64,000 nucleotides of DNA from Dehalococcoidia bacterium (GTDB lineage: Bacteria > Chloroflexota > Dehalococcoidia > DSTF01 > JACRBR01): NCBI GenBank assembly GCA_041494685.1, contig JBGQBE010000006.1, positions 16,064 through 80,063 of the forward strand. The letters are read 5' to 3'. This document shows positions 3,879-55,419 of the stretch, piece after piece. The stretch's first letter is position 1; every line of letters begins with the position of its first letter. Both the position numbers and the translations under genes were made by a program. The notes beneath the pieces were generated by a model that saw only the letters and a list, made by a program, of their open reading frames with translations, did not search any database and was not told the origin of the DNA.

Positions 3879-4018
3879 CGTCCTGCCTCCTCGCTGGCTC
3901 CAGCTTACCGCGCACAGCGTACCCGCCGAGCGACAGAAGCGGGAACCGCGCGGCGCACGGACAAAGGCCGCGGGTGCGTACTGCGCCCGCGGCCTCGTGA
4001 ACTCCCGCGCCGTCCCGG

Positions 4019-6328
4019 CTACGGCGCCCGCCGGCTCCCCGGCAGGTATCCTCCGCTGCCCGTGTCCGGTCCCGCGATCGATCCGCCCGGCGACGGCGCA
4101 CCCGGTCCCGTGTCCGGTCCTCCGTTCCAGTCGGGCGCGCACCCGGCCGCGGGGCAGTCGAAGCGCATGTTCAGCGTGCCCGTCGCGCCGCTGTAGCCGC
4201 CCGCCTGCACGTAGTAGACCGTGTTCGCGGCCAACTCCGCCGTCAGGCTCCCGGCGTCGCTGCACGCCAGCGGCGTCAGCGCGCCGGGGGGTGACATGCC
4301 GTCCATCCGGTACAACGCCATCACTGCTCGGAAGTCACTACCGGCCGCGTCGACCGTCAGCGTCCCGCCACGCTCTCCCGTCGTTGAGCGGTACCACACC
4401 GTTGCGCCGATGTCGCCGCACGGTTGCGCCTCGCCCACCTCCAGCGTCGCCCCGCGCGTGTCAGCGCTGGTCGCATAGGCCGATGGCGAGATCCATTCCG
4501 CGCTGCGGCTGTTGTCGTTATGCGGCGGGCACAATGGGTCGCACTTCCCCTGCACCATCAGCTGGCCGCCAACGCCGTGGACGCCGCCGATCTGGACCCA
4601 CACCTGCGTGTTCGCCTTCACCGCCACCGCCACACGCGCCCGCCCGCCGCTGCCCGGCGCGTCGCACGCCAGCCGCTGCGCCGCCGCGCCCGGTGGTGAC
4701 GATGGCGGCGCGTCGTACACGGCGATCGCCGTGTCGAAATCGCTCTGCGCCGTGTCGAGGACGACGCGCGCGTCGACTTCCGCGTACAGCGTGAACCACA
4801 CGGTGCGGCCCATGGCACCGCAGTCCAGCGCCTCACCCGTCTCCGTCGTCGCGCCGCGCGTGTCGGCCCCGGTGTCGAACGGCTGGTTGCCCGACACGTA
4901 CAATCCGTTTGGCTGCGCCGAACTGTCGCCCCACGGCGGACAGAACTCCGGCAGGCAGTTCCCTGACAGTTGGAGCATGCCCGCGGCCCCGTCGTGCCCG
5001 CCCACTTGCACGAAGTAGTGCTTCAGCGCCTGTGTCGCGAAGGTGACGCGCGCCTGCGCTCCGCCCGCGTCGTCTACGCACTTCAGTGTGCGCAGATCGC
5101 TGAACGCCCGCGACCCGTCCTCCGGCGCCTCGTACACCGCGATGACCGTGTCGAAGCTGCTGGCCGCCGTGTCGAGCATCACGCTGGTGTCACCCGGCAT
5201 CGACAGGTCGTACCAGGTCGTCCGCCCGATGCCGCCGCACGGCTGCGGCTCTCCCGCCTGCGTCGTCGCGCCGACGGTCGAGATCTGATCTTCCCACGGT
5301 CCCGACCCGAACGTGCTTGCACCGTCCAGGTTGTCGTTGTACGGCGGACATCCCGGCTTGCACGCCATGTTCAGCACCAGCCGCCTGTGCGCACCGCCCG
5401 CGCCGCCCGCCTGGATCCAGAACGTCTGGTTGCCCTCGAGGTGCACCGACAGGCTCGATGCCTTGCCGCCGCCGCTGTTGTCGTCGCACGCCAGCGGCGT
5501 CAGCCCGCCCGGAGGTGAGATCGAGACGTCGTTGTAGGCGAAGACCGCCAGCGTCGTGTCGAAGTCGCTGCCGCTCGTGTCCAGCGCCAGGGTCATGCTG
5601 CTCGCGGCGTAGAACGAGTACCACACGGTAGCGCCCGCATTTCCGCATGCTCGCGACTCGCCCGGCTCCAGTGTCGCTGCCGTCGTGTCGGCGCGGTACT
5701 CCACGGCCGGCCGGTACGCGTCCAGGTACGTGTAGGTGCTCATCGCCAGGTCGTCGTTGCCCGGCTTGCACGCCGGGTCGCACGCCGCGTGCAGCTCCAG
5801 CTGCCCGGTCGCGCCCGCCTTGCCCCCGATCTGGATGAAGTACTGCTCGCTCGGCGTCACCGCCAGCGTCAGCGCCGATGTCTGGCCGCCGCCGCTATTG
5901 TCGTCGCAGCCCGCGCTCACCAGGTTCTGTCCGGGCGGCGACGGCACGAAGCCTGTCGCCGTGTAGACCGTCAGCACGGTGTCGAAGTCGCTGCCCGCCG
6001 TCGTGATCGTGATCGTGCCCGGCTGCTCCGGCCGGTACGCGTACCACACCGTCGCGCCCGTCGCCGCGCACGGCGCACTTTCGCCGTCCTCCAGTGTCGC
6101 GCCGGCCGTCGACTGGCTGGCGTCGTACGGCAGCGCGTCGCCGAACTCGGTCTGGCGGATGTCCGTGCCGCGGTTGAAGTTGTCGTTGCCCGGCGGGTCC
6201 GCGGCGTGCGCCGCTGGCGCCCGCCACGGCGCCGTATCGCGGAACGCGGCGAAGAGCGCCGCCACCAGGATGGCGAGCGCGATCGAGAGGATTGCCGCAG
6301 CCGTACGGGATGTGTGTGTGTTGTGCAT
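4019..6328 (-). CDS. large secreted protein with six tandem PPC-like (pre-peptidase C-terminal) beta-sandwich repeats
   Basis: Signal/anchor MHNTHTSRTAAAILSIALAILVAALFAAF (ATG 6328 after GAGGTGG). Six ~115-aa repeats, each with PxNDNF..A..I, DTxGATxExGE(P)xPCG, TVWY, GSDFDT(V/A)LAVY, LACDDNSGGG, YFIQ(V/A)GG..GATGxL motifs, bounded by CxPxC spacers. Confidence 0.8.
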   Translation of the reverse strand: MHNTHTSRTAAAILSIALAILVAALFAAFRDTAPWRAPAAHAADPPGNDNFNRGTDIRQTEFGDALPYDASQSTAGATLEDGESAPCAATGATVWYAYRPEQPGTITITTAGSDFDTVLTVYTATGFVPSPPGQNLVSAGCDDNSGGGQTSALTLAVTPSEQYFIQIGGKAGATGQLELHAACDPACKPGNDDLAMSTYTYLDAYRPAVEYRADTTAATLEPGESRACGNAGATVWYSFYAASSMTLALDTSGSDFDTTLAVFAYNDVSISPPGGLTPLACDDNSGGGKASSLSVHLEGNQTFWIQAGGAGGAHRRLVLNMACKPGCPPYNDNLDGASTFGSGPWEDQISTVGATTQAGEPQPCGGIGRTTWYDLSMPGDTSVMLDTAASSFDTVIAVYEAPEDGSRAFSDLRTLKCVDDAGGAQARVTFATQALKHYFVQVGGHDGAAGMLQLSGNCLPEFCPPWGDSSAQPNGLYVSGNQPFDTGADTRGATTETGEALDCGAMGRTVWFTLYAEVDARVVLDTAQSDFDTAIAVYDAPPSSPPGAAAQRLACDAPGSGGRARVAVAVKANTQVWVQIGGVHGVGGQLMVQGKCDPLCPPHNDNSRSAEWISPSAYATSADTRGATLEVGEAQPCGDIGATVWYRSTTGERGGTLTVDAAGSDFRAVMALYRMDGMSPPGALTPLACSDAGSLTAELAANTVYYVQAGGYSGATGTLNMRFDCPAAGCAPDWNGGPDTGPGAPSPGGSIAGPDTGSGGYLPGSRRAP

Positions 6329-39485: not shown

Positions 39486-42272
39486 ATGGTCCTCCAGGCC
39501 GAGCCCGAAGCCCGCAGATCGCTGAACGGAACCGCATGCACCGTCGAGCGCTTCTTCACGCGCTCCGGGGATGATCCGTTCAACGATCTCGCGTGGGAAT
39601 ACCGGACGGCCGTCATCGCCGACGAGACGGGCAACGCGTTCTTCGAGCAGAAGGACGTGGAGATCCCGAAGGCGTGGTCGCAGACCGCGACCAACGTCGT
39701 CGTGTCGAAGTACTTCCGCGGCCCGCTCGGCACCGACCGGCGCGAGCGCAGCGTGAAGCAGATGATCGGCCGCGTGTCCGACACGATCACCCGCTGGGGC
39801 GTGAAGGACGACTATTTCGAGAGCGCTGAAGAGGCGCAGACGTTCCATGACGAGCTGACGCACCTGCTGGTCCACCAGAAGATGGCGTTCAACAGCCCGG
39901 TGTGGTTCAACGTCGGCGTCGAAGAGAAGCCGCAGTGCTCGGCGTGCTTCATCCTCTCCGTGGACGACACGATGGAGTCGATCCTCGACTGGTGCAAGAC
40001 GGAGGGCATGATCTTCAAGGGCGGATCGGGCAGCGGCATCAACCTGTCGCCGATCCGGTCCAGCAAGGAGCAGCTGTCCGCCGGCGGCCAGGCAAGCGGG
40101 CCGATCTCCTTCATGCGCGGCGCGGACTCGATCGCCGGATCGATCAAGTCGGGCGGCAAGACGCGGCGCGCGGCGAAGATGGTGGTGCTGAACGTCGACC
40201 ACCCGGACGTCGAGGAGTTCATCGACTGCAAGGTGAACGAGGAGCGGAAGGCGCTGGCGCTGGGCGAGGCCGGCTGGGACATGTCGTTGAACGGCGACGC
40301 CTGGTCGTCGATCCAGTTCCAGAACGCCAACAACTCCATCCGCGTGTCCGACGAATTCATGCGCTCGGCGGTCGAAGGCCGCCCCTGGCAGCTTCGATCG
40401 GTGCGAGATGGCTCGGTAGCGAACGAAGTCAACGCCCGCGATCTGCTGAACCGGATGGCGGCCGCGGCGTGGGCCTGCGGCGACCCCGGCATGCAGTACG
40501 ACACGACGATCAACGACTGGCACACGTGCGCGAACACGGCGCGGATCAACGCGAGCAACCCGTGCTCGGAGTACATGCACGTGGACAACAGCGCGTGCAA
40601 TCTGGCGTCGCTCAACCTGATGAAGTTCATCGATGACGACGGCGTCTTCGACTCCGAGTCGTTCCGACGCGCGGTGACGGTGACGATCTGGGCGCAGGAG
40701 ATCATCGTCGGCAACTCCAGCTATCCGACGCCGAAGATCGCGGCGAACACGATCGCGATGCGTCAGCTCGGCCTCGGCTACGCGAACCTCGGCGCGCTGC
40801 TGATGTCGCTGGGACTTCCGTACGACTCCGACGCGGGCCGCGCGTACGCCGCGGCGATCACCGCGCTGATGACGGGACACGCGTACGCGACGTCCGCCGC
40901 GATCGCGCAGCGGGTCGGCCCGTTCGACGCCTTCCACCTGAATCGCGAGCCGATGTTGCGGGTAGTTGCGAAACATCGTGACGCTTCGCGTACAATACAG
41001 ACGGCGCATGTGCCGTCGGCGTTGATCGGCGCAGCGCAGCAAGCGTGGGATGACGCGTTGGAGTCTGGACAGAAGTTTGGTTACCGCAACGCGCAGGCGA
41101 CGGTGCTGGCACCGACCGGGACGATCGCGTTCATGATGGACTGCGACACCACGGGCGTGGAGCCGGACATCGCGCTGGTGAAGTACAAGAAGCTCGTCGG
41201 CGGCGGCATGATCAAGATCGTCAACCAGACGGTGCCGCGCGCGTTGAAGCGCCTGGGCTACGGTGCGCCGGAAGTCGAGCAGATCGTGAAGCACATCGAC
41301 GCCACCGGCACGATCGAGGGCGCGCCCGGCCTGCGCGACGAGGACCTGGCGGTCTTCGACTGCGCGTTCAAGGCGGAGAACGGCAAGCGCTCGATCCACC
41401 ACATGGGCCACATCAAGATGATGGGCGCAACGCAGCCGTTCATCTCCGGCGCGATCAGCAAGACGGTGAACCTGCCGAACGAGGCGACCGTCGAGGACGT
41501 GGCGGACACGTACGTGGAAGCGTGGCGGCACGGCGTCAAGGCAATCGCCATCTACCGCGACGGCTCGAAGACGGTGCAGCCGCTCTCGACGTCGAAGTCG
41601 TCATCCGGGACGGGCGCCGCGGCGGCGGAGCCGGCGCAGCCCGTGCGGCGGAAGATGCCGGACACCCGAAGCTCGCTGACGCATAAATTTTGCATCGAGG
41701 GCCACGACGGCTACATCACCGTCGGGCTGTACGACGACGGCACGCCAGGGGAGATCTTCCTCTCGATGGCGAAGCAGGGCTCGACGGTGAGCGGCCTGAT
41801 GGAGGCGTTCGGCCGGGCGATCTCGTACACGCTCCAGTACGGCGTGCCGGTGCAGGACCTGGTGCGGAACTTCGCGCACATGCGGTTCGAGCCGATGGGC
41901 CGGACGGAGAACCGGGACATCCCGGTGGCGCAGTCGATCATCGACTACGTGTTCCGCTGGCTTGCGAGCCGCTACATGTCGCCCGGCGACGCGTACGAAG
42001 TCGGCGTGATGACGCCGGAGATCAAGGCCGCGCTGGCGGCCGGACAGTACCCGCTGCCATTGGCGGGAGCGGTCGCGCCGGTGGCGGGTGGCAGCGAGAG
42101 CGCGCCAGCCGCGACGCTGGGCGCGGGGACGGCCGTGCCGGCGATGTACCAGGCGCCGCGTGCCAACGGGCACGCCGATGCGCCTGCGTGCGCCAGCTGC
42201 GGCTGGATCATGATTCGGTCGGGGACGTGTTACCGCTGTGAGAACTGCGGTAGCACGAGTGGCTGCTCCTAA
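39486..42272 (+). CDS. nrdJ: adenosylcobalamin-dependent (class II) ribonucleoside-diphosphate reductase NrdJ
   Basis: 928 aa; ...FEQKDVEIPKAWSQTATNVVVSKYFRG...PQCSACFILSVDDTMESILDWCKTEGMIFKGGSGSGINLSPIRS...; C-terminal Cys-rich zinc ribbon CASCGWIMIRSGTCYRCENCG. Confidence 0.95.
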   Translation: MVLQAEPEARRSLNGTACTVERFFTRSGDDPFNDLAWEYRTAVIADETGNAFFEQKDVEIPKAWSQTATNVVVSKYFRGPLGTDRRERSVKQMIGRVSDTITRWGVKDDYFESAEEAQTFHDELTHLLVHQKMAFNSPVWFNVGVEEKPQCSACFILSVDDTMESILDWCKTEGMIFKGGSGSGINLSPIRSSKEQLSAGGQASGPISFMRGADSIAGSIKSGGKTRRAAKMVVLNVDHPDVEEFIDCKVNEERKALALGEAGWDMSLNGDAWSSIQFQNANNSIRVSDEFMRSAVEGRPWQLRSVRDGSVANEVNARDLLNRMAAAAWACGDPGMQYDTTINDWHTCANTARINASNPCSEYMHVDNSACNLASLNLMKFIDDDGVFDSESFRRAVTVTIWAQEIIVGNSSYPTPKIAANTIAMRQLGLGYANLGALLMSLGLPYDSDAGRAYAAAITALMTGHAYATSAAIAQRVGPFDAFHLNREPMLRVVAKHRDASRTIQTAHVPSALIGAAQQAWDDALESGQKFGYRNAQATVLAPTGTIAFMMDCDTTGVEPDIALVKYKKLVGGGMIKIVNQTVPRALKRLGYGAPEVEQIVKHIDATGTIEGAPGLRDEDLAVFDCAFKAENGKRSIHHMGHIKMMGATQPFISGAISKTVNLPNEATVEDVADTYVEAWRHGVKAIAIYRDGSKTVQPLSTSKSSSGTGAAAAEPAQPVRRKMPDTRSSLTHKFCIEGHDGYITVGLYDDGTPGEIFLSMAKQGSTVSGLMEAFGRAISYTLQYGVPVQDLVRNFAHMRFEPMGRTENRDIPVAQSIIDYVFRWLASRYMSPGDAYEVGVMTPEIKAALAAGQYPLPLAGAVAPVAGGSESAPAATLGAGTAVPAMYQAPRANGHADAPACASCGWIMIRSGTCYRCENCGSTSGCS

Positions 42273-42316: not shown

Positions 42317-42565
42317 ATGGCTGTAGCAGCGAAGAAGCCGGCAGCGAAGAAGCCGGCCGCCAAGAAGAAGCCAGCGGCCAAGAAGGCTGCGGCGAAGAAG
42401 CCGGCCGCCAAGAAGGCTGCCCCCAAGAAGAAGCCGGCGGCGAAGAAGCCGGCCGCCAAGAAGAAGCCGGCCGCCAAGAAGGCTGCCCCCAAGAAGGCAG
42501 CAGCGGCGAAGTCCCGAACCGCCAAGAAGCCGGCCGCGAAGCGCAAGCCGGCGGCGAAGAAGTAA
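42317..42565 (+). CDS. histone H1/AlgP-like lysine-alanine-rich nucleoid-associated protein (KAPA/AKKPAAKK repeats)
   Basis: MAVAAKKPAAKKPAAKKKPAAKKAAAKKPAAKK... 82 aa; strong RBS GGAGG; DNA is a tandem 24-30-nt repeat; the opposite-strand ORF (AAGFF repeats) is its shadow. Confidence 0.8.
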   Translation: MAVAAKKPAAKKPAAKKKPAAKKAAAKKPAAKKAAPKKKPAAKKPAAKKKPAAKKAAPKKAAAAKSRTAKKPAAKRKPAAKK

Positions 42566-52923: not shown

Positions 52924-53451
52924 ATGTCAATCGTGTCACCAGAACGGCTCGTAACCCCCCGGTTTTGCCTCGTGTGCGGCGGCTCGCTCGTCGAACGCTT
53001 CATCGCGTCCGAGGGGCGGCGAAGGTACCAGTGCGAGGCGTGCGAGTACATCCACTACGAGAACCCCAGGGTCGTGGCGGCCGTCATCATCGAGCACGGC
53101 GGCAGGCTCCTGCTGCAGCAGCGGGCGATGGAGCCGCGGACAGGCTTCTGGACGTTCCCGGGCGGCTTCCTCGAGGTCGGCGAGCGGCCACAGGACGGCG
53201 CAGTGCGCGAGGCGAACGAGGAGGTCGGGCTGGACGTGACGGTACGGTCGCTCCAGGGCGTCTACTGCCGGCCGGAAGTGGGCATCGTGCTCGTAGTGTA
53301 CGAGGGGACCAGTTCGACCGATGAGGCCGTCGTGGCGGACTGGGAGTCGACCGCGGTGCGCTGGTACGGCATCGACGAGATCCCGTGGCCGGAGCTGGCG
53401 TTCGTGACCACGGAGGCGGCGCTGCGGGACTGGGTCGCCGCGCACGGGTAG
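52924..53451 (+). CDS. NUDIX hydrolase with N-terminal zinc ribbon (NudC-like architecture)
   Basis: CLVCGGSL...YQCEACEY zinc ribbon; Nudix box [24 protein letters not shown]. Confidence 0.85.
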
Positions 53452-53462
53452 CGGGACGGCGG

Positions 53463-53490
53463 CCAGTCTCCAGTCTCCAGTCTCCAGTCT
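53463..53490 (+). repeat. heptanucleotide tandem repeat (CCAGTCT)x4 immediately upstream of/overlapping the trmD start
   Basis: ggCCAGTCTCCAGTCTCCAGTCTCCAGTCTCCATGagc; a related 17-mer occurs upstream of nrdR (37512..37530). Confidence 0.8.
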
Positions 53491-53492
53491 CC

Positions 53493-54638
53493 ATGAGCTA
53501 CCCTCACGGCATGCGGATCGACATCCTGACGCTGTTCCCGGAGATGTTCTCCGGGCCGTTTGACGCAAGCATCATCGCGCGGGCGCGGCAGAGCGGCGTG
53601 CTGGAGATCGCCCTCCACAATCCACGCGACTACACCGGCGACAAGCACCACGTCGTGGACGACTATGCGTACGGCGGCGGGCCCGGCATGGTGATGAAGC
53701 CGGAGCCGCTGTTCGACTGCGTGGACGCGGTGCGGGCGCTGGCCGCCCCGCGCGGCAAGGTCGTGCTGTTGACGCCGCAGGGCCGCCTGCTGGATCACGC
53801 GGTGGCGGCGGAGCTCGCGCGCGAAGAGCGGCTGATCGTGATCTGCGGCCACTACGAGGGCGTGGACGAGCGCGTGCGCGAGTTCCTGGCGGACGACGAG
53901 ATCAGCATCGGCGACTACGTGCTGTCCGGCGGCGAGCCGGCGGCGATCGTGCTGGTCGACGCGGTGGCGCGGCACCAGCCGGGCGTGCTGGGGTCGGAGG
54001 CGTCGCTGGAGGAGGAGTCACACGCGCAGGGGCTGCTGGAGTACCCGCAGTACACCCGGCCGCCGCTGTACCGCGAGATGGCGGTGCCGGAGATCCTGCT
54101 CTCGGGCCACCACGCCGAGATCGAGAAGTGGCGGCGCCAGCAGAGCGTGCTCCGCACGGCGCGGCGCCGCCCCGACCTGCTGGCGAAGGCGACGCTGACG
54201 GCGGCCGAGCGGCGGTTGGTCGAGGCGGAGCGCGGCGGCGAGGCGGCCGTGACGCCGGCGCTGCTGCGGGTCGTCATGCCGGTGAGCGACATCGAGCGCG
54301 CGGCGGCGTTCTACGCGGCGGCGCTCGGCACGCCGGGCGCGCGCGTCTCTCCGGGACGCCACGACTTCGACTGCGGCGGCGTCGTGCTGGCGTGTGTCGA
54401 TCCGCGCGCGGACGGCGAAGACCGCGACGCCCGGCCGAACGCCGAGCACGTCTGCTTCGCCGTGCCAGACCTGGCCGCGGCGTTCGAGCGCGTGCGCGGG
54501 GCTGGCTGCCAGTGGATCGAACGGCGCCCAAAGACGCGCGACGGCGGCGAGCGTTCGTTCCGCGCGCGGGACCCGTTCGGCAACCCGATCTGCTTCGTGG
54601 ACGAGCGCACGGCGCGCGGCGGCGGGCTGAAGGAGTAG
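53493..54638 (+). CDS. trmD: tRNA (guanine37-N1)-methyltransferase TrmD fused to a C-terminal glyoxalase/VOC domain
   Basis: (MSYPHG)[42 protein letters not shown]...[12 protein letters not shown]...YVLSGGE... then, without a stop, [23 protein letters not shown]...[22 protein letters not shown]...[13 protein letters not shown]; alternative ATG 53511. Confidence 0.85.
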
Positions 54639-54642
54639 CGGC

Positions 54643-55419
54643 ATGGGTACACGGCTGGCTGGCAAGGTCGCGATCGTGACGGGCGCGGGCGCGGCGGAAG
54701 ACGGCATCGGCAACGGGCGCGCGGCGGCGATCCTGTTCGCGCGGGAGGGCGCGAAGGTGCTGCTGGTGGACCGCAAGCCGGAGCTGGCGGAGCGCACGCG
54801 CGAGATGATCGCCGCGGAGGATGGCGAGTCAGCCGCGATGGCCGCGGACGTGACGAGCGCGGAGGACTGCGCCGCGATGGTGCGTGCGGCGATCGAGCGC
54901 TGGGGGCGGCTCGACATCCTGCAGAACAACGTCGGCATCGGCGGGCCGGGACGCGTGACCGACGTCGAGGAACGCGACTGGGAGCGCGTGATGCGGATCA
55001 ACGTGACGGGGATGATGCTGGCCGCGAAGCACGCGATCCCGGCGATGGTCGAGAGCGGCGGCGGCGCGATCGTCAACGTGTCGTCCATCGCGGCGGCGCG
55101 ACCGTGGCGGATGACGCCCTACGCGACGTCGAAGGGCGCGGTGGAGGCGCTGACGCGCGGCATGGCCGCCGACTACGCGCGCGACGGCATCCGCGTCAAC
55201 TGCATCGAGCCGGGGATGATGTACACGCCGCTGGTGTACGCGGGCGGCCGCATGAGCGCCGACGAGCGTGAGCGGCGGCGGAAGGCGGCGCCCCTGGGCA
55301 TCGAGGGGACGGGCTGGGACGTGGGGTACGCGTCGTTGTTCCTGGTGTCGGACGAGGCGAAGTTCATCACGGGCGTAGTGCTGCCGGTGGACGGCGGCGC
55401 GCTGCTGACTGTGCGGTAG
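54643..55419 (+). CDS. short-chain dehydrogenase/reductase (SDR)
   Basis: GKVAIVTGAGAAEDGIGNG Rossmann motif; NNVG; catalytic Y..K (YATSKGAV). Confidence 0.9.
   Translation: MGTRLAGKVAIVTGAGAAEDGIGNGRAAAILFAREGAKVLLVDRKPELAERTREMIAAEDGESAAMAADVTSAEDCAAMVRAAIERWGRLDILQNNVGIGGPGRVTDVEERDWERVMRINVTGMMLAAKHAIPAMVESGGGAIVNVSSIAAARPWRMTPYATSKGAVEALTRGMAADYARDGIRVNCIEPGMMYTPLVYAGGRMSADERERRRKAAPLGIEGTGWDVGYASLFLVSDEAKFITGVVLPVDGGALLTVR

Follow-up and report, generated by a model that had tools for sequence, protein, structure and literature searches.

A conserved, lineage-restricted fusion of the tRNA methyltransferase TrmD to a VOC domain in Dehalococcoidia

Organisation of the trmD-VOC gene

We analysed a stretch of 64,000 nucleotides from a Dehalococcoidia bacterium (assembly GCA_041494685.1, contig JBGQBE010000006.1, positions 16,064 to 80,063 of the forward strand), here called the window. 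In it the gene for TrmD continues in frame into a domain of the vicinal oxygen chelate (VOC) fold. TrmD is a homodimeric, S-adenosylmethionine-dependent enzyme that makes m1G37 in tRNA; it is essential in bacteria and an antibacterial target. The gene is divided as follows.

53511..54638, + strand: trmD-VOC fusion gene with its most probable start, 375 residues and a TAG stop (the alternative ATG 53493 gives 381 residues)
53511..54191, + strand: TrmD module, SPOUT N-terminal domain and helical C-terminal domain (NCBIfam, Pfam, solved TrmDs)
54192..54263, + strand: linker, native TrmD C-terminal tail and former intergenic or overlap junction (EAAVTPA; protein and DNA alignments)
54240..54251, + strand: vestigial GAGG resembling a ribosome-binding site (54240-54243) and, at 5-nt spacing, the former VOC start GTG (54249-54251), now an internal Val
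54264..54599, + strand: VOC domain (glyoxalase/bleomycin-resistance fold)
54600..54638, + strand: poorly conserved C-terminal tail and TAG stop (alignment; ratio of nonsynonymous to synonymous substitution rates, dN/dS; predicted local distance difference test, pLDDT)

According to the listing of open reading frames (ORFs) in the window, the frame 53385..54638 (+) is uninterrupted and has no internal stop. The initial annotation let the gene begin at 53493, and reading from that ATG gives a protein of 381 residues. The ORF stands, but ATG 53511 is probably the start, because nearly all homologues in the protein alignment begin with MRIDIL and the sister locus L012 has no ATG at the upstream candidate position. 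No Shine-Dalgarno sequence was found at ATG 53493 or at ATG 53511. In the C-terminal tail dN/dS is above 1, a value resting on very few sites, and pLDDT is below 50.

Both halves are recognised well above curated thresholds, in agreement with the initial annotation, which had described TrmD in frame with a VOC domain and no stop between them. In the 381-residue form, Pfam places tRNA_m1G_MT (PF01746) at residues 30-227 with an E-value of 1.9e-63, and Glyoxalase (PF00903) at residues 258-368 with an E-value of 4e-13 (50 bits against a cut-off of 20.6); Glyoxalase_6 is found as well. The NCBIfam equivalog models of TrmD match residues 7-233, NF000648 with 317 bits (cut-off 220) and TIGR00088 with 304 bits (cut-off 195). 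Solved TrmD structures align to residues 1-240 with E-values of 1e-75 to 1e-77, and none of them covers the C-terminal part. An AlphaFold model of the C-terminal 128 residues has a pLDDT of 93 and shows the paired beta-alpha-beta-beta-beta units of the VOC fold. The model of the full-length monomer has good pLDDT within each domain, a predicted template modelling score (pTM) of 0.51 and no confident packing between the domains.

The TrmD half is predicted to be an ordinary m1G37 methyltransferase. The SPOUT knot and the S-adenosylmethionine-binding motifs, including PGVLG, are invariant across the alignments. In E. coli TrmD the general base is D169; the corresponding position (..EDSF..) is a Glu (..EEESH..) in every member of the clade, fused or unfused. 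In the window this conservative change lies at about 54030-54038, E174-E175-S176 of the 381-residue form. No second trmD and no second VOC gene were found within the window.

The fusion is conserved and under selection

The same fusion was sought in relatives, and about 57 protein clusters with both Pfam domains in one ORF were found, at 63-89% identity and with lengths of 365-430 residues, in assemblies from NCBI, JGI, ENA and Logan. The protein database contains the identical sequence and a second 381-residue member of the same 90% cluster, located on a 107.9-kb contig. Three loci (L010 and L011, from JGI and ENA; L012, from JGI) are fused at 87-89% identity and two more (L004, L005) at about 70%, all with the gene order of the window. 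The synteny zf_Tbcl(-), NUDIX, trmD-VOC, (SDR), thiD, thiS, thiG, thiE, thiO is seen in these five loci and in L094.

Comparing the window with L010 and L012 by the Nei-Gojobori method, we obtained a dN/dS of 0.13-0.20 for the VOC part and of 0.19-0.31 for the TrmD part, and purifying selection is also seen across the regions flanking the junction. Because the fused clusters are conserved, the gene order is kept and dN/dS is low, we regard the additional VOC domain as translated and constrained.

Three proteins (P0050, P0053, P0056) were left out of the analyses. Part-way through its VOC domain P0050 ceases to resemble the others and runs into an unrelated C-terminus, the pattern expected of a frameshift. 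In P0053 and P0056 the N-termini are divergent and the C-terminal parts are very similar to those of other fused clusters, a combination that points to chimeric assembly.

The window, matched in the analysis to contig JBGOWU010000007.1 of assembly GCA_041478795.1, belongs to a metagenome-assembled genome (MAG), and the split arrangement seen in some relatives differs from the fused one by a small indel only, so a single-base error could mimic a fusion. That a frameshift in sequencing or assembly, or a missed stop, merged two genes in the assembly is nevertheless extremely improbable. The 107.9-kb contig carries a second copy of the arrangement in the same 90% cluster, separate JGI and ENA samples yield fusions at 87-89% identity, and about 57 clusters are fused in total. 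In addition, the junction sequences have diverged, with loss of the start codon, and the surroundings of the junction are under purifying selection. The conservation across independent assemblies and the dN/dS values effectively exclude an artefact.

Beyond this group the arrangement is rare. Of 1.84 billion representatives clustered at 50% identity, only one (P0029) matched the query end to end in an exhaustive HMMER scan, and the TrmD-VOC fusion seen here is, on this evidence, a single, narrow family. The initial annotation called such a fusion uncommon and of unknown function. The scan bears out the former, and the latter holds too. Full-text literature searches gave no paper on a TrmD-VOC or TrmD-glyoxalase fusion. 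Source annotations, where present, label the fused proteins simply as TrmD.

Fused, split and VOC-less relatives and the origin of the fusion

Within one TrmD clade, whose TrmD parts are 80-90% identical, three states coexist: fused, split with adjacent genes, and without VOC. In L014, a Dehalococcoidia MAG with a TrmD 80% identical, trmD ends in TAA and is followed after 7 nt by the ATG of a 128-residue VOC gene in another frame. In L095 and L096 (TrmD 82% identical) a trmD of 249 residues and a VOC gene of 130 residues overlap in GTGA, and a GGAGG lies inside the end of trmD. By its layout, the latter arrangement is a classic translationally coupled pair. Four further loci (L001-L003, L013; 85-89% identical) have a TrmD of 244 residues and no VOC, and neither tblastn nor hmmsearch found a VOC remnant near their unfused trmD. 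Two close loci stand among the matches listed in a census of GTDB genomes, L014 with a VOC gene and L013 lacking it; the census gives no frequencies of the three states.

Separate genes in relatives had been named in the initial annotation as evidence that would speak against the fusion. Such genes do exist, in L014 and in L095/L096, but the fusion in the window stands beside them. From the comparison, the split relatives show how the fusion arose and how labile the fused state is in evolution.

The junction retains traces of the separate genes. In the DNA alignment the TAG of the unfused L001 falls on a GCG of the window, the second codon after ..RGG. One codon past this GCG is the GTG at 54249-54251, which aligns with the initiators of free-standing VOC proteins (MPPRLYRV; (M)TTRLYRV) and with the VOC start of L095 (GTG-ACA-ACG). 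The fused protein P0011 retains a Met at the former VOC start (..EGERMPPRLYRV). In most fused proteins the former start codon is mutated, and it is GCG in the sister loci L010 and L012. In those genomes the VOC domain is therefore made only as a part of TrmD.

The alignments thus place the origin of the fusion at a coupled pair of neighbouring genes. The ancestor in the Dehalococcoidia lineage would have had trmD followed by a small VOC gene, coupled through a GTGA overlap or a gap of a few nucleotides. A small indel or the loss of the stop at the junction would then have joined the two frames, turning the old start codon into an internal Val. We propose such a change because of the split relatives, the alignment of the junction and the remnant GTG.

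The VOC domain

The VOC domain is related to free-standing proteins of about 125 residues, with which it forms a widespread family. These proteins are strongly conserved and 57-67% identical to the domain in the window. Their annotation goes no further than "VOC family protein" or "PhnB-like", and they include proteins of Bacteroidota and Dehalococcoidia. They occur in varied gene contexts, one of them in a nuo cluster, and are independent of TrmD elsewhere; no conserved context shared by the free-standing members was found in the loci examined. In one subgroup (L006 3946-5387; L097 1731-3175; L098-L100) the VOC gene is consistently preceded, at a gap of about 14 nt, by a gene for a protein of about 347 residues that is anchored in the membrane by its N-terminus and matches no Pfam family. 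This conserved gene pair could help to assign a function to the VOC family.

The initial annotation described the domain as glyoxalase/VOC. The fold is confirmed by the Pfam match and the model, while glyoxalase I chemistry is unsupported, because the metal ligands differ and the glyoxalase I model TIGR00068 gives 16 bits against a cut-off of 120. The metal ligands of E. coli glyoxalase I are His5, Glu56, His74 and Glu122. Here the canonical positions hold Arg6, Ala47/Cys48, His66 and Cys114 (the second and fourth ligands placed by manual alignment), which is not the metal-binding set of VOC enzymes. Arg6 aligns to the His or Glu of 3ey8 and 3r4q. None of the NCBIfam models reaches its cut-off on the VOC domain; the best are FosA/FosB, bleO and methylmalonyl-CoA epimerase with 17-19 bits. 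The identities glyoxalase I, FosA/FosB and methylmalonyl-CoA epimerase were rejected, all their scores being far below the cut-offs.

Several positions that are invariant or nearly so among the free-standing proteins vary in the fused ones, as listed here.

Y38: free-standing 120/120, fused 38/54, window D
Y68: free-standing 120/120, fused 42/54, window C
W98: free-standing 120/120, fused 43/54, window G
Y104: free-standing 120/120, fused 44/54, window R
F122: free-standing 119/120, fused 34/54, window R
C48: free-standing 117/120, fused 18/54, window C
H66: free-standing 109/120, fused 37/54, window H

His66 is replaced by Pro in L010 and L012. Six residues (R6, H37, C41, E100, D107, C114) are near-invariant in fused and free-standing proteins alike. 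The mean net charge of the fused VOC domains is -0.5, compared with -3.9 for the free-standing proteins, and that of the VOC domain in the window is 0. Fusion was accompanied by a relaxed or shifted constraint on the probable ligand pocket, with the fold still under purifying selection.

Interpretation of the fused protein

We favour, with a probability of about 60%, a bifunctional protein that results from the fusion of neighbouring genes and combines TrmD with an independent VOC module not involved in methylation. The N-terminal 230-240 residues would act as the housekeeping TrmD that makes m1G37, and the C-terminal 115 residues or so would fold independently as a VOC domain on a linker of about 25 residues. 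Since VOC proteins with a single domain form dimers, the VOC domains of the two subunits in a TrmD dimer most likely associate with one another. The module most likely retains the small-molecule-binding role of the free-standing family rather than glyoxalase I chemistry, and would take no part in tRNA methylation. The fusion would mainly fix a 1:1 co-expression, and it may stabilise the dimer.

Several observations weigh against this view. Binding of small molecules is deduced from the nearest structural neighbours of the fold; at 17-26% identity, these comprise proteins from structural genomics and VOC proteins that bind or modify antibiotics. The protein in the window has lost Y38, Y68, W98, Y104 and F122, so the ancestral ligand site may be altered, and such losses under purifying selection are easier to reconcile with a role that has changed or become structural than with the original one. 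The lower acidity of the fused VOC domains could reflect an adaptation to their place beside tRNA, and a second, independent fusion of TrmD to a VOC-like domain in Chlamydiales is a hint that the two domains may not have come together at random. Finally, the change may have run either way, by fusion or by fission, and once or repeatedly: fused and unfused forms interleave in a neighbour-joining tree of TrmD. In the corresponding VOC trees the fused domains lie on one side, with a few VOCs from split genes among them (P0234, P0161 and others). These trees are unbootstrapped and their sample is biased by the ranking of hit scores.

The VOC domain might instead have been recruited adaptively as an accessory of TrmD, which contacts tRNA, clamps the dimer or tunes m1G37 formation as a ligand sensor. 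The Chlamydiales fusions, which lie in the canonical ffh-rpsP-trmD-rplS context, speak for such a role, as do the reduced acidity and the loss of the family's invariant aromatic residues under continuing purifying selection. Most fused proteins, those of L010 and L012 among them, no longer have the old start codon, so there the domain is made only together with TrmD. There is also a precedent in bleomycin N-acetyltransferase (2zw4), a transferase whose binding module is a VOC domain. On the other hand, close relatives lack the domain or encode it separately, and the VOC domain is therefore dispensable for TrmD. TrmD is also fused to many unrelated domains, the model has no confident packing between the domains (pTM 0.51), and the net charge of the VOC domain in the window is 0, not basic. 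We consider functional integration rather unlikely, and quite unlikely the further proposal that the VOC fold was recruited convergently in Dehalococcoidia and Chlamydiales as a TrmD module for tRNA contact, dimer clamping or sensing. If true, the latter would mean that an essential enzyme of tRNA modification, itself an antibiotic target, has a new kind of appendage for regulation or substrate handling, and it would affect the maintenance of the reading frame.

It is also improbable that the domain is an active metalloenzyme, similar to glyoxalase I or another metal-dependent VOC enzyme, that detoxifies an electrophile and is merely co-expressed with TrmD. An isomerase, epimerase, thiol transferase or dioxygenase would be the candidate classes. 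Membership of the VOC fold is clear, the NCBIfam models of FosA/FosB, glyoxalase I and methylmalonyl-CoA epimerase match the domain weakly, several polar residues (R6, H37, C41, E100, D107, C114) are near-invariant in both forms, and genes of the detoxification type (DinB_2, NUDIX, SDR) are nearby. However, the His/Glu/His/Glu positions hold Arg6, Cys48, His66 and Cys114 in the alignment whose second and fourth ligands were set by hand. Among the fused proteins Cys48 is kept in 18 of 54 and His66 in 37 of 54, the latter being Pro in the nearest relatives, and every equivalog score is far under its cut-off (for glyoxalase I, 16 against 120).

The fused, split-adjacent and absent states, together with the remnant start codon, document this case unusually well and make it a clean example of how overlapping stop/start pairs give rise to fusion proteins. 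If the VOC domain does nothing for TrmD, this is a routine fusion of neighbouring genes, of value mainly as a warning against deriving function from "Rosetta stone" fusions.

Neighbouring genes and other features

The immediate surroundings of the gene contain the following features.

52924..53451, + strand: upstream neighbour, Zn-ribbon NUDIX hydrolase, its position kept in fused, split and VOC-less relatives
53463..53493, + strand: perfect tandem repeat with a 7-bp unit, (CCAGTCT) x4.4, in the leader of trmD and directly next to the upstream candidate ATG (Tandem Repeats Finder, TRF)
54643..55419, + strand: downstream neighbour, short-chain dehydrogenase (SDR), starting 4 nt past the stop codon of the fusion

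The repeat possibly serves as a leader element or in regulation. At the equivalent position L010 has (CCAGCCT) x4 (5973-6003), the unit having changed in concert, while L012 (about 5960-5985) and L001 (about 5925-5975) have a degenerate, CCTCC-rich pyrimidine tract. A scan for promoters and terminators around trmD-VOC gave nothing informative.

The stop of the fusion and the start of the SDR gene (54636-54645) form a further tightly packed junction of the same operon. In L014 an SDR homologous to that of the window comes after the separate VOC gene.

Elsewhere in the window, an ORF of about 83 residues (42317-42565, +) consists nearly entirely of Lys/Ala/Pro repeats (KKPAAKK...), like a basic protein of the histone H1 type. 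It is encoded by a tandem repeat array of 15/33/66 bp and lies just downstream of an ORF of 928 residues (39486-42272) that, by eye only, resembles ribonucleotide reductase.

Comparison with known systems

The protein resembles canonical TrmD (E. coli 1P9P, H. influenzae 1UAJ, S. aureus 3KY7) over residues 1-240, with the equivalog cut-offs exceeded. It differs by an additional C-terminal linker and VOC domain of about 140 residues and by the Glu in place of E. coli D169. The canonical operon is rpsP-rimM-trmD-rplS, whereas the gene in the window lies between a NUDIX gene and genes of thiamine synthesis.

We sampled 20 TrmDs with C-terminal extensions. Three carry a SPOUT domain of the Tm1570 type, three a VOC-like domain and two a GNAT domain, while six have no Pfam match in the extension; DinB_2, HAD, M29 peptidase, aldose 1-epimerase, HisIE and HTH are found once each. 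Representatives of the fused TrmDs with partners other than VOC are P0246, P0249, P0384, P0262, P0294, P0302, P0257, P0258, P0266 and P0352. The TrmD C-terminus appears to be a hotspot of fusion, although some of the sampled cases may be artefacts of gene calling or assembly. The protein in the window fits this class, with a complete TrmD followed in frame by a complete globular domain that recurs across genomes. Such natural TrmDs with extra domains bear on how the C-terminal, tRNA-binding half tolerates or exploits additions. Within the class, TrmD-VOC is a lineage-restricted C-terminal fusion without evidence of functional coupling, and it is real, selected and dispensable in close relatives.

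A published parallel is TrmD-Tm1570 of Calditerrivibrio nitroreducens, solved as a dimer (PDB 8B1N; bioRxiv 10.1101/2025.08.27.672562). It shares with the protein in the window the TrmD residues 1-240 and a C-terminal partner that is itself homodimeric; P0258, P0266 and P0352 are of the same class. In TrmD-Tm1570, TrmD is joined to a second SPOUT RNA methyltransferase, not to a VOC domain, and the VOC partner has no evident RNA role. The solved structure demonstrates that the C-terminus of TrmD can accommodate a partner that is itself dimeric.

Compared with the free-standing VOC proteins (P0122, P0171, P0235), the domain in the window is 57-67% identical and has the same length and the same core residues (R6, H37, C41, E100, D107-P-x-G-N, C114). 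It has D, C, G and R at the invariant Y38, Y68, W98 and Y104. Free-standing members with the same ..FTGGRFVP tail lie directly downstream of trmD in L014 and L095. To the ligand-binding VOC proteins and VOC-transferases (1ECS/1JIE, EhpR 3SK1, TnmS1 5UMQ, bleomycin N-acetyltransferase 2ZW4) the identity is only 17-21%, and much of the aromatic lining that the domain's own family conserves is missing from it.

The long TrmDs of Chlamydiales, with 342-377 residues (P0337, P0351, P0379, P0401, P0411), have a C-terminal domain that Pfam detects as Glyoxalase/Ble-like. The first three are the VOC-like cases among the 20 sampled proteins, and their relatives are named "Chlamydiales bacterium". In L093 (trmD 4001-5080) the gene order is rpmE-prfA-prmC-ffh-rpsP-trmD-rplS-rnhB-..-gmk-..-metG. 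An hhalign comparison of this VOC-like domain with the VOC family of the window gave a probability of 47%, over the first half only. Because both the VOC lineage and the genomic context (ffh-rpsP-trmD-rplS-rnhB) differ from those in the window, we regard the Chlamydiales fusion as independent. Short TrmDs of 222-240 residues coexist with the long forms within Chlamydiales, and the TrmD of cultured Chlamydia (CT027, about 352 residues) presumably shares the VOC-like extension. The extension in Chlamydiales raises the question whether the VOC fold serves TrmD.

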